Below are positions 8,357 to 31,761 of a stretch of DNA of 32,000 nt, piece after piece. Source of the stretch: Mycoplasmoides pneumoniae FH (GTDB taxonomy: Bacteria; Bacillota_I; Bacilli_A; Mycoplasmatales; Mycoplasmoidaceae); assembly GCF_001272835.1 (NCBI RefSeq), contig NZ_CP010546.1, positions 362,809 through 394,808 on the forward strand. Reading direction: 5' to 3'. How positions within the stretch are numbered: the stretch's first letter is position 1; the number at the start of each line of letters is the position of its first letter. The translations under genes were made by a program, and so were the position numbers. The notes beneath the pieces are model-generated. The model had not been told where the DNA came from and ran no database searches. It was given only the letters and a program-made list of their open reading frames with translations.

Positions 8357-8629
8357 TTAAACGGGAAAAGAATAGGACGATTTACCAGGGGTTAAACCTA
8401 ATCGGAACCGACCGGTACTAAAGTAGTCTTTTTGTGAATTCCTTCTTTTATAGCTATAACTGCTGCCATTGCCGTTGGCATTATTAGCGTTAGCAGCTTC
8501 GCTGATGTCTAACGCGGTATTAATTAACGTACTAAAGGCGTTTACAATCATAATTACTCCCGCACTGAAGCTTCAAAATGATAAGCCTCCAACTACTTGT
8601 TTAGCTTCTGATTTTTTTAATCTCTGCAT
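8357..8629 (-). CDS. Small (90 aa) hypothetical protein with one predicted TM helix and an N/G/S-rich tail (position of MPN313)
   Basis: Track ORF 8357..8551(-) extends upstream through one TGA (Trp) to ATG at 8629-8627, which is preceded by GGAGacacaata. The N-terminus reads MQRLKKSEAKQVVGGLSFWSFSAGVIMIVNAF.... A T-rich terminator follows on the minus strand. Confidence 0.6.
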
Positions 8630-8698: not shown

Positions 8699-8775
8699 GT
8701 CATCATAGCTCAATAGGACAGAGTATCAGCTTGCGGAGCTGAGGGTTACAGGTTCGATTCCTGTTGGTGACGCCA
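8699..8775 (+). tRNA. tRNA-Arg, anticodon GCG, with genomically encoded CCA
   Basis: Hand-folded cloverleaf. Acceptor GTCATCA/TGGTGAC (one G-U pair). D-stem GCTC/GAGT with a GG-containing D-loop. Anticodon stem TCAGC/GCTGA with loop TTGCGGA. 5-nt variable loop. T-arm ACAGG-TTCGATT-CCTGT. Discriminator G plus CCA. Confidence 0.9.
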
Positions 8776-8786
8776 TAATACTTTCT

Positions 8787-8819
8787 AACCTACCAGTGTT
8801 ACCCTGGTAGGTTTTTTAT
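8787..8819 (+). terminator. Intrinsic terminator after the tRNA
   Basis: A 10-bp stem aacctaccag/ctggtaggtt with loop tgttacc, followed by a T-run (tttttatt). Confidence 0.75.
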
Positions 8820-8987
8820 TTGCTCCGTTGGCTCACGGTGGATGAAACCACCTTTGACTTACTTTTGTAAACCCAAAAAGTGGTCTTGTAAACCACTTTG
8901 GTGCCTTTTACTTTGCTGTTCCAAAGCGCTTTTTTTAGGTTTGCTGGCAGTTCTTTTAGCCAAAAAAGTTTTTTTATTCTAAGATAT

Positions 8988-9024
8988 AAAGTGTTTTAAA
9001 GTGTCACAAAGTGGCATAAAGTGG
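8988..9024 (+). promoter_or_regulatory. Array of four direct AAAGTG(T/G) boxes at exact 10-nt spacing; putative MraZ operator of the dcw operon
   Basis: aaagtgt at 8988 and 8998, aaagtgg at 9008 and 9018. The last box ends 5 nt before the mraZ ATG (9030). Candidate -10 hexamers TAAGAT (8980-8985) and TATAAA (8985-8990) lie just upstream of or overlap box 1. Confidence 0.65.
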
Positions 9025-9029
9025 TAAAA

Positions 9030-9455
9030 ATGCTTTTAGGAACCTTCAACATTACCCTTGATGCAAAAAACAGGATCAGTCTGCCAGCGAAGCTGCGGGC
9101 TTTCTTTGAAGGTAGCATTGTTATCAACCGTGGCTTTGAAAACTGCTTGGAAGTGCGTAAACCACAAGACTTCCAAAAGTACTTTGAGCAGTTCAACAGC
9201 TTTCCCTCCACCCAAAAAGACACTAGAACACTCAAGCGCTTAATTTTTGCCAACGCTAACTTTGTGGATGTAGATACAGCGGGACGGGTTTTAATTCCCA
9301 ACAATCTGATTAACGATGCCAAGCTAGACAAGGAAATTGTTTTAATTGGCCAGTTTGACCACTTAGAGATTTGGGACAAGAAGCTGTATGAGGACTACCT
9401 AGCCAACTCTGAGTCGTTGGAAACGGTAGCGGAAAGGATGAAAGATGTTAAGTAA
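9030..9455 (+). CDS. mraZ: Transcriptional regulator MraZ (141 aa)
   Basis: [23 protein letters not shown]... and the second half-repeat ...[12 protein letters not shown]... are the typical duplicated SpoVT/AbrB-like MraZ motifs. I prefer ATG 9030 over the track's GTG 9021. Confidence 0.93.
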
Positions 9456-10371
9456 TCAACCCCACAAAAGTGTCTTACTTGATGAAGTCATCCACAACCT
9501 CAACATTAAAGGTGATGGTAACTATTTAGATCTTACTGTTGGTTTTGGCGGTCATAGTCAGCACATTTTAGAGCAGCTTACCACTGGCACTTTAACTGGC
9601 AATGACATGGATAAGGACAGCATTACCTTTTGTACCGAGCTGTTCAAAGACAAAAAGAACGTTGTTTTAGTCCATGATAACTTCGCTAACTTTTTTAACC
9701 ACTTAAAGCAGCTCAAAGTAACGAAGTTTGACGGCATCTTAATTGATTTAGGGGTTTCGAGCTACCAGCTAGATAAACCAGAACGCGGTTTTAGTTTTAA
9801 ACACGCCGGTCCATTTGACATGCGCATGCACCAAAGCGATCGCGTACCAACTGCTTTAGATATCTTGGAGAGGTTGTCTGAGGAAGAATTGACACATGTT
9901 TTAAAGAAGTTTGGTGAAATAGCCCACCCCAAACCAATCGCCAAGGCCTTAAAAACACTCATTAATAACATTAAAAATCCAACTACGGTAGAGGTAGCGG
10001 AAACAGTTAAGGCAGCTGCTAGCAACTTTGAAAAGTACAAATCACGCAATTACTTAGCTAAAGTTTTCCAAGCCATTCGCATTTACCTCAACCGTGAACT
10101 GGAAAGTTTGGAAATTGTGCTGCAACACATTCCCAAGCTGTTGAACAATAAGGGTCGTTTTCTAGTGATTGTCTTCCATTCACTCGAGGAAAAATTGGTG
10201 CGGAACTACATTTTTAAACTTACTCACTTTGTCCAACCCCCTGAACTACCCGTTAAATTAACCCCACCGTTTGAACTCATTACTAAAAAACCCATTTTGC
10301 CAACTGAACAAGAAATTAAAACGAACCCCCGTGCTCGAAGTGCCAAACTGTTTGTCATTGAAAAGAAATAA
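9445..10371 (+). CDS. rsmH: 16S rRNA (cytosine1402-N4)-methyltransferase RsmH/MraW (308 aa)
   Basis: Intact track ORF overlapping mraZ by 11 nt. Motifs [19 protein letters not shown] (SAM pocket), [10 protein letters not shown] and NPRARSAKL. Confidence 0.93.
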
Positions 10372-28427: not shown

Positions 28428-30778
28428 GTGTTAGCTAGAAGAGGACGACGGCAAAAGAGTGCTGTAGGACTTACTTATTTTGCTTACCTTGCACAGCAAA
28501 CACTCCGCAGCAAAACCTGCTGGGTGATGTTTGTGCTGTTGATGCTGGCGTTAGTGATGCTGTTCATTGTTCAATCGAGCACCAACGTGATTGCGCTTTG
28601 AACAAACAATGTCTTTCAGTTTTCACTCATCTTAATACCGTTAGTGACACTGTTAGCGGGCAGTATTACCGCTGACATCTTTATTGAAGGGTACAACAAC
28701 GGGATTGAGCTGTTCTTGTTCTCTAAACCTATTAGCCGTGACCGCATTTTGCTCATTAAGTTACTAGTGCTGTTAATGTACTTGAGTATTGTAGCCGTAC
28801 TATCCACTGCTGTAGTGAGCTTGGGTTACTTTACGCGCAATGAGATTGAGAGTTATTTAGATGATTTAGCTTTAAGTATCTTTGTCGGTACCATTTTAAA
28901 CGGCATTATCTTTAGCGCTGTAACTATTATGTTAGCCACGCGCTTTAGCAACATCCAGAGCTTAATCATTTTGCTCTTGTTTGTGTCGTTGTTTAGCTTT
29001 TCCTCACCAATTGCGCGGTTAATCTTCGACACGCCTGCTAAAATGTTGAGCCAACAAGGTTACAGCGTTCGCCAAATTAACGGAATTGCGCACAGCGAAA
29101 GCCCTAATGTAGAGCGTAAAATTTACGTTTCGGTCAAAAAGCGGCGTTTAACTGGGGTGGATCGCGAAGAAAAAGAGCTTTGAAAGAGTGATGAGCAAGC
29201 AGCACTGCGTGGTAGAAATTTGTATGAGGAGGCACAACGAACCTCCTCTTACATTAATTCCTTTTACACCAACATTGGTTACTTATTTGGCTCGCTTTAC
29301 CGCTTGGGTGCGTTAGCTGATGAAAATAACTTTGATGCATCAGTAGCAACCCAAAACACCAAAATTCGCTTTGGTAAGTTAGTTGATTTAGATAAGAGTA
29401 CTGACATTATTGGTTATCGCACTAAAGACCGCTTTGGCCGTTTCTTTCGCTTTCACTTGCGCTTTCCAACGCTCAACTTTAAGCAAAGCTTGAGTAACAG
29501 CGGCGTTTTCTTTATCAATAAACGGGGATTAGTTAAAGCTACTTTTAGTGCTGGCGATGATGCCTTTAAACGTGACCCGAAGATAATGCAAAAGGTGTTT
29601 GACACTTTTCTAGAAAGTTTTAGTTGATTTTTAGACAAGAAAATTAACCGCCGGATTGCCAGAATTTACGCTGAAAGTGATAACAAGGGTAGTCCTTTCC
29701 CAAAGGAAGGAGATGATGAAAATGCTAAGGGGGATGACAACAGTAGTGAAAAAACGGATACAGTCTCTGTATCAACTAAGTTAAAAACAACTGCTGATCA
29801 ATCTGAAAGTACTCAGATGTCTAGTGAAAGCACTGCCACCGGTATTTCTAGTGATCCCCAAAGTCAGGGCAAAATGAACAACAAAAGTGAGGAACAAAAA
29901 AAGAAAGAAAAAGAACTCACTTGACAAATCTACCGTGATATTAAGTTTCTCAATTCCATTTATTTCTTACAGGTAAATAACGAACGTTTGTGGGACAATG
30001 TAGCTTTTTTAAATAAAGTGAACGCTGAAGACCAAAACGGGGATAAAAACCAGTTTGCCCAAGCAATGGCATCACTCAATAAGCAAATTAACATGTTTTA
30101 CGTGTTGAATGAAATTACCAACAAGGAACACAATTTGCCAACTAAATACGGTGCTTATTCTGATCAATTAAAAAAGGTCATAAACGAAAACTTTGAAAAG
30201 ATAGAAAATAAGAAAAAGGAGATAGAGGAAAAACAAAATAAAGAATTTCAGGAAAACAAGAATGGTGCATCAAATAATCAAGACACAAAGCAAGACGCAC
30301 AAAAAGGTGATACCAATACCCAAAGCACTGAGTTAAAAGCTCGTCAAGCACAACAAGTGCAAAAGGATCAACAAAATGACAGTAAAGGCAATACTGCTAC
30401 AAACAGTGATACTGGTAAATCGGACAATAAAACCGATACCACTGAAGATGAAAAAAACACATATAAACCCTTAACAGCTAGGGAGAAAAAACCAAAATTA
30501 AGGAGCTTACTAAGGACATCTTCTTCTCTACAGCGCAGAACTATTTGTTCTTAGTGCAAGGTGGGTATAACAACAAGTTGTTTGCTGGTGGTTTACCAGA
30601 GCTCCACCAACGCTTCTTGTCAGACGTAGTGGTTGATTTCTCTGAGGAAAAACTCGTTTATGAAGTACAAGGTGAACCGATTGTATCCAGTGTAGCCACC
30701 ATTGTGATTACCCTATTTTTAACAGTTGTTTTATTAGCTATTGCCTTTTTCTTCTTTAAATACCGCAACGTTAAATAG
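28428..30778 (+). pseudogene. Large permease-like membrane protein of the adjacent ABC system (MPN333 position), with the frame broken at an A-run near 30486-30491
   Basis: GTG 28428 follows an in-frame TAA. Track ORFs 28644..29183, 29220..29627 and 29988..30554 share a frame and are joined by TGA codons. That frame then ends in ...REKKPKLRSLLRTSSSLQRRTICS*, while the -1-shifted frame (open from 30482) reads GEKTKIKELTKDIFFSTAQNYLFLVQGGYNNKL...TM helix...KYRNVK* (track ORF 30545..30778). The span is 2351 nt (3n+2). Confidence 0.7.
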
Positions 30779-30780
30779 TT

Positions 30781-31761
30781 ATGTCTGTTACACCAATTGT
30801 TGAAGTTAAACATTTAGAAAAGGAATTTGGTTTTTGACGCAAAAACCGTATCTTAAAGGATGTGAATTTTGCCATTATGCCCGGTGAGTTCCATGCCTTT
30901 ATTGGTCAAAATGGTGCGGGGAAAACTACCACCATTAAGTGTTTAATTTCATCTTATCAGCGCTTTAAGGACGAAATTAACATCGATGGCATTAGCAATA
31001 AAAACGCCAAGTCTAAGGGTGTAATTAGTTATATCCCTGAATATGCTGTGTTTCCCAAACACCTCAATACCCATGAATACCTCTACACGTTGGGTAAACT
31101 GTCAGGTTGTAGTTTGCAAACCATTAAGGAAAAGGTTGATTACTGACTAGCACGTTTTCAAATTGAACACCTCCGCTTTAAAAAGCCAAATGACTTTTCT
31201 TCTGGACAAAAGAAAAAGGTTTTATTAATCCAGGCCTTATTTAATGATCCCAAGCTGTTAATCATGGATGAGCCCACTGCTAACTTAGATCCCAAAACAC
31301 GTAATGAGTTTATGGATGTGTGTTACGAACTTAATGTACGTAACAAGATGGCGGTGTTTGTTTCATCCCATATTTTGGCTGAATTGGAAAACTATTGTGA
31401 TTCGCTCACTGTTATTCATGAAGGGCAAATTCTTTTTAATGGCAAAACAAAGAACATTGCCAAAGACAACTTTGGTTACCGTTTAAAGGTTAACCATTCC
31501 GATAGTTTACGTAAGTGATTAAAAGCACAAAAAATTGCTTACAAGTATTTCCCTGCAACCGATGACTTTCAAGTTGACTTAAAACAAGAGCAATCCAACA
31601 AATTTGCAGTTGAGCTTTACCAACAACCTGACTTTGAGGTATTTATTTTTGCACGACAAGGCAACTCGTTGCAAAACATTTACAATAACCTAATTGAGCA
31701 ATACGAGTACGATCAAGCCCAGCGTGCTGTTGCTATCCGTGAACAAGATGAAGCTGTTTAA
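30781..31761 (+). CDS. ABC transporter ATP-binding protein (326 aa)
   Basis: Walker A GQNGAGKTT, signature FSSGQKKK, Walker B LLIMDEPTANLD and H-loop SSHIL. Track ORFs 30862..31146 and 31264..31518 are joined and extended through TGA codons to TAA 31759-31761. Confidence 0.92.

Follow-up and report, generated by a model that had tools for sequence, protein, structure and literature searches.

What reads the row of short direct repeats that ends just before the mraZ start codon of Mycoplasma pneumoniae, and what does its reader do to the genes that follow? In the window, the 32,000-nucleotide stretch of DNA analyzed here, four heptamers lie on the + strand: AAAGTGT at 8988-8994 (box 1) and 8998-9004 (box 2), and AAAGTGG at 9008-9014 (box 3) and 9018-9024 (box 4). 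The sequence-only reading had placed four heptamers with starts at 8988, 8998, 9008 and 9018, and 5 nt between the last of them and the ATG of mraZ; the letters confirm this arrangement, with box 4 followed by TAAAA (9025-9029) and the ATG at 9030. The GTG cores fall at -39, -29, -19 and -9 from the ATG, the four cores being separated by six bases, and AAA precedes the core in all four boxes, as in the Mollicutes-type site. Box 4 contains a GTG (9021) in the reading frame of the ATG at 9030, and for this reason the ORF lister starts mraZ at 9021. Our analysis leaves little doubt that the array is the operator through which MraZ represses its own operon, mraZ-rsmH-MPN316-ftsZ. The likely MraZ autoregulatory operator proposed from the letters is thereby supported by the identity of the MraZ gene, the printed motif, the transcription starts in box 1 and a ChIP-seq peak.

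The heptamer alone is common; the phasing is the enriched feature. AAAGTG(T/G) is not enriched in the window, with 23 occurrences versus 19.9 +/- 5.1 in shuffles, and it occurs 437 times in the genome of 817,207 bases. A genome scan for phased AAAGTGK arrays, suggested alongside the initial proposal, finds the array at 8988-9024 to be the only exact 10-bp chain among these 437 heptamers, apart from which a single heptamer pair is spaced at 11 bp. From the genome heptamer count, 8e-9 four-box arrays would be expected under independence, and GTG-N7-GTG-N7-GTG has no further occurrence in the genome beyond the array. With a weight matrix derived from the mraZ promoters of 29 other genomes (92 units), the array reaches 42.4 bits versus 4.2 for the best other four-unit site in the genome, while the best two-unit site elsewhere, C1:204107 (-), reaches 19.4 bits. 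Neither heptamer chains nor the weight matrix reveal phased arrays of at least three units elsewhere in the genome. The operator at 8988-9024 is unchanged in runs X8, X12 and X15, three of the four public runs, with contigs spanning the array. The spacing had been described as exactly one helical turn; the regular 10-bp period holds, whereas the exact turn does not, as one turn of B-DNA is about 10.5 bp and the period is only close to it.

Read in genetic code 4, the window places the array directly upstream of mraZ, the first of the four genes that make up the M. pneumoniae dcw operon. The product of mraZ (MPN314; 9030-9455, +; 141 aa) matches TIGR00242 at 224 bits (cut-off 98) and is identical at 141/141 residues to PDB 1N0E, which is M. 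pneumoniae MraZ according to PMC12957436. It keeps D11, K13, R15, S17, D82 and R86, with both DXXXR motifs intact. Downstream lie rsmH/mraW (9445-10371, +; 308 aa; TIGR00006, 455.9 bits), an MPN316 family protein (10374-11633, +; 419 aa; NF045748, 563.5 bits), whose place in M. genitalium is taken by a putative ftsA in PMC12957436, and ftsZ, assigned by NCBIfam in two frames (11639-12400 and 12408-12782, +). The NCBIfam order is mraZ, rsmH, MPN316, ftsZ, with MPN313 upstream on the opposite strand. The upstream neighbor is a tRNA-Arg(GCG) (8699-8775, +) that passes Rfam, and a terminator-like hairpin with a T run (8787-8823, +) separates this tRNA from the dcw promoter. That hairpin is partly conserved in G009, the genome whose mraZ promoter is the probe printed for M. 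genitalium.

The published promoter data place the array at the site of initiation. TAAGAT at 8980-8985 (+) is the MPN314 Pribnow box in Tables S4 and S8 of Yus et al. 2019 (PMC6721554). In Table S4 the promoter of MPN314 is given as TAAGATATAAAGTGT, its starts being numbered 373375 and 373377. Once paper and window are aligned by an offset of 1576, the printed promoters of MPN311, MPN313 and MPN314 are all recovered, and the published starts are therefore G8991 (TSS1) and G8993 (TSS2), both a G of box 1; upstream of MPN309 the paper-to-window offset is about 1630-1633. The UTR length of 39 given for MPN314 in Table S8 matches the 39-nt leader from TSS1. As such, the array overlaps the start site as mapped in those tables, and the element is the same as the published one, with string, starts and leader corresponding base for base to 8980-8994 and only the genome numbering differing. 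The placement at the initiation site that had been read from the letters is upheld, with TAAGAT as the -10. The array had also been described as downstream of both -10 candidates, which is correct for TAAGAT; TATAAA at 8985-8990 shares three bases with box 1, and the array therefore lies only partly beyond this hexamer. TATAAA was rejected as the -10, being absent in G009, where TAAGAT is kept, and misfitting the published starts. A consensus scan found no TTGACA-like -35 for TAAGAT. In X16, one of two RNA runs, the contigs end at 8974 and restart at 8994, beside the published starts, and those of X15 are uninterrupted, although assembled contigs cannot show starts.

A comparison across relatives shows that the arrangement is conserved. 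Among 61 genomes searched, 44 had a MraZ match, and the loci of the best 30 were taken. In the 110 bases before mraZ, the numbers of loci with strict GTG(T/G) chains (exactly 10 bp) of four, three, two and one cores are 4, 15, 5 and 6, respectively. At least three strict cores at 10 bp are thus found in 19/30 mraZ loci, our own included, versus 0/479 downstream coding control windows, one of which reached two cores; as the loci come from kin genomes, this comparison speaks for conservation and does not amount to 30 independent trials. With a relaxed core, [GA]TG[GT], which was picked after viewing the sequences, at least three units occur in 27/30 loci and in 0/479 controls. The strict triple heptamer is found in 7 of the 61 genomes, all of the same genus and at mraZ positions, and its reversed control in none. 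The heptamer, weight-matrix and triple-heptamer scans each return one full array for the present genome. G009, whose MraZ is 82% identical, has the same four-box register, with GTG at -39, -29, -19 and -9 from the ATG. Other positions also occur. Five loci of the same genus (L008, L009, L010, L012 and L013) carry a three-box array 61-86 bases upstream of mraZ, followed in several of them by a TAAAAT-like hexamer and an AGGAGG ribosome site. The boxes of these five loci would lie near the -35 rather than at +1, and we would guess that this might bear on the activation reported for M. gallisepticum. In L014, L016 and L017 the last box overlaps a GTG start codon of mraZ.

The MraZ operator at M. 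pneumoniae mraZ is already known and published for the species, and its M. genitalium counterpart has been solved by cryoEM. The motif that the sequence-only reading gave for Mollicutes MraZ, AAAGTG[G/T], agrees with the AAAGTG[T/G] printed in PMC8475190 and PMC5282649. The M. genitalium site consists of four AAAGTG(T/G) boxes with N3 spacers, and transcription begins at one of the G of box 1 (PMC12957436). This operator has been studied by EMSA and with box mutants: binding and repression, the latter measured with a lac promoter reporter in E. coli, are lost step by step as boxes are mutated, MraZ binds with a Kd of 43.3 nM, and the K13A, R15A and R86A proteins do not bind (PMC12957436). The cryoEM structures (PDB 9R4J, 9SZ7 and 9SX6) show an opened octamer ring with four subunits on four boxes, the core being read by K13, R15 and R86, and oligomeric MraZ tolerates longer spacers (PMC12957436). 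The M. genitalium start is given as 266629 in the main text of PMC12957436 and as 266929 in its supplement; provided that G009 is numbered alike, 266629 falls on the second G within box 1 and would correspond to 8993. Deletion of M. genitalium mraZ raises mraW, MG_223 and ftsZ by log2 3.02, 2.08 and 2.34, i.e. 4- to 8-fold (PMC8475190).

The M. pneumoniae locus is like that of M. genitalium in its four AAAGTG(T/G) boxes at 10 bp, its TAAGAT -10, a box 1 G as its start, the 5 nt from last box to ATG, the operon, and the contact residues of MraZ. In contrast, box 3 ends in GTGG here rather than GTGT, the spacer bases differ, the two proteins are 82% identical (residue 83 being S in one and T in the other), and the region upstream of the M. 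pneumoniae promoter is longer by about 90 bases, which contain two hairpins. The Mollicutes site of Fisunov et al. 2016, (AAAGTGKN3)3 as cited in PMC8475190 and PMC5282649, is alike in unit and period but has three units rather than four, and activation on over-expression was reported for it. According to bioRxiv 10.1101/2022.02.09.479790, the B. subtilis site shares the GTGG core and the 10-bp period, which are required there for repression of the mra operon, and differs in having three repeats, a GTGG[A/T]G consensus and a larger dcw cluster.

Binding and expression data exist for M. pneumoniae itself. In Table S3 of Yus et al. 2019 (PMC6721554), the ChIP-seq signal of MraZ reaches 50673.81 at position 373419, which maps to about 9035 in the window, roughly 11 nt beyond box 4 and off the array center. 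In part 5 of 11 of that table, eight other MraZ peaks have values of 620-2776, and the operator peak is at least 18 times each of them. From these published ChIP-seq entries, MraZ occupies the array region in vivo. We tested the same eight minor peaks (offsets 1630-1632) for a second operator; three of the eight have a nominal p < 0.05 in one of three tests (329062 with two units; 324824 and 354142 with three units), and no match at these eight peaks is convincing after multiple testing. With regard to expression, Table S8 of PMC6721554 marks MPN314 as DOWN under MraZ, and in Table S5 MPN314-317 are up in the MraZ mutant strain, with MPN313 and MPN318 blank. The rises, as given in Table S5, are 0.609 for MPN314 and 0.272, 0.267 and 0.300 for MPN315-317. 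Table S2 lists an R15A construct, the transgene log2 RNA is 0.53, and the mraZ rise of 0.609 is confounded by this transgene. The over-expression strain scarcely raised MraZ (log2 only 0.005; PMC6721554) and therefore does not demonstrate repression. The direction in the mutant strain fits repression and the size is small, so that support for repression from M. pneumoniae itself is weak, and M. genitalium appears to be de-repressed more strongly. EMSA or box mutants on the M. pneumoniae sequence were not found in the literature searched, which covered few subscription papers.

Taken with the M. genitalium structures, these data suggest how the operator may work. From the mapped published starts, RNA polymerase uses TAAGAT at 8980-8985 and initiates at G8991 or G8993. 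By analogy with M. genitalium, the ring-shaped MraZ oligomer would open so that four neighboring subunits occupy the boxes from one face of the helix, loading cooperatively from the opened ring with one subunit per box. Each subunit is predicted to read GTG(T/G) in the major groove via K13, R15 and R86, as shown for the M. genitalium protein. Coverage of +1 to +34 by MraZ might then block promoter opening or escape; the M. genitalium authors state that the promoter is "probably" blocked, in a review reply in the supplement of PMC12957436. The outcome would be negative autoregulation that holds FtsZ and its partners low. In this human pathogen with a reduced genome, the MraZ operator is among the few transcription-factor sites and determines FtsZ levels, and the recovery of a published operator with the right geometry from sequence alone serves as a positive control.

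The same occupancy could in principle serve activation, or activation and repression depending on MraZ level. M. gallisepticum MraZ is reported to activate on over-expression, as cited in PMC12957436, and the small de-repression in M. pneumoniae points the same way, but +1 and the leader lie under the boxes, the mutant-strain direction is up and Table S8 reads DOWN (PMC6721554), and deletion de-represses in M. genitalium with the same geometry (PMC8475190); we consider activation exceedingly unlikely. Nor is it easy to credit that the repeats act as RNA, with boxes 2 and 3 pairing in the 39-nt leader to control translation or stability. A 7-bp hairpin between box 2 and box 3 does appear in the minimum-energy fold of 8991-9060, but this fold is no better than shuffles (z -0.08; 82/200 shuffles as good), G009 retains the boxes and their period but has other bases at the spacer positions forming the hairpin, and the leader matches no Rfam family, only the tRNA passing; the chance of this reading is close to nil.

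A further alternative is that the protein chiefly reading the array is not MraZ but DnaA, or else a controller of the HsdC type, whose TG core is similar. In the ChIP row of the MraZ peak, DnaA (416.84) and numerous further proteins have small values (PMC6721554, Table S3). The MraZ value is more than 100 times that of DnaA, however, PMC6721554 itself warns of phantom peaks at active promoters, and HsdC does not bind the MraZ motif according to PMC5282649. Between the tRNA and the mraZ ATG there is no DnaA box TTWTNCACA within one mismatch, and no cluster of DnaA boxes. We give another main reader hardly any credence, and autorepression by MraZ remains by far the best account of the array.

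The stretch upstream of the promoter has features of its own. About 90 bases within 8826-8945 are absent from G009 and contain two hairpins, at 8837-8852 and 8877-8899, the second of which carries one AAAGTGG per arm, at 8877-8883 (+) and 8893-8899 (-). On the minus strand, 8826-8905 has a more stable fold than 200/200 shuffles (z -4.18), the 8826-8945 stretch has no Rfam match, and 8814-8950 is not a dispersed repeat, being single copy with a longest other genome match of 16 bases. RpoB and SigA have signal in a ChIP row whose position corresponds to about 8930 (PMC6721554, Table S3). The inverted AAAGTGG pair at 8877-8899, some 90 bp upstream of the array, might be an auxiliary site for MraZ, to which free subunits of the oligomer loop back in a bipartite operator. 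The tolerance of oligomeric MraZ for longer spacers (PMC12957436) would allow this, and the weight matrix scores the + heptamer at 13.1 bits, higher than the four main boxes. The pair is, however, no more than the stem of a terminator-like hairpin. A single heptamer within 150 bases has a chance of about 8%, with the other arm following from the hairpin, the genome has only two inverted pairs within 30 bases, as by chance, and the ChIP row at 8930 lists no MraZ signal (PMC6721554). We therefore regard an auxiliary site here as very unlikely.

Several open reading frames in the window appear irregular. Compared with the 369-aa FtsZ of G009, ftsZ switches frame between 12370 and 12381, and all four public runs, from four studies, carry a one-base indel versus the window in this stretch. 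The frame break is for that reason most likely an assembly error, with a strain mutation as the alternative, given that the same four runs share seven substitutions against the window. On the other side of the operon, the published MPN313 promoter (TATGAT, start 8541), at 8541-8552 (-), falls within a 90-aa frame at 8360-8629, and the real protein may therefore begin at a later ATG. Finally, a 708-aa permease-like frame at 28428-30554 stops abruptly about 230 bases before an ABC ATPase at 30781, where a second frameshift is possible.
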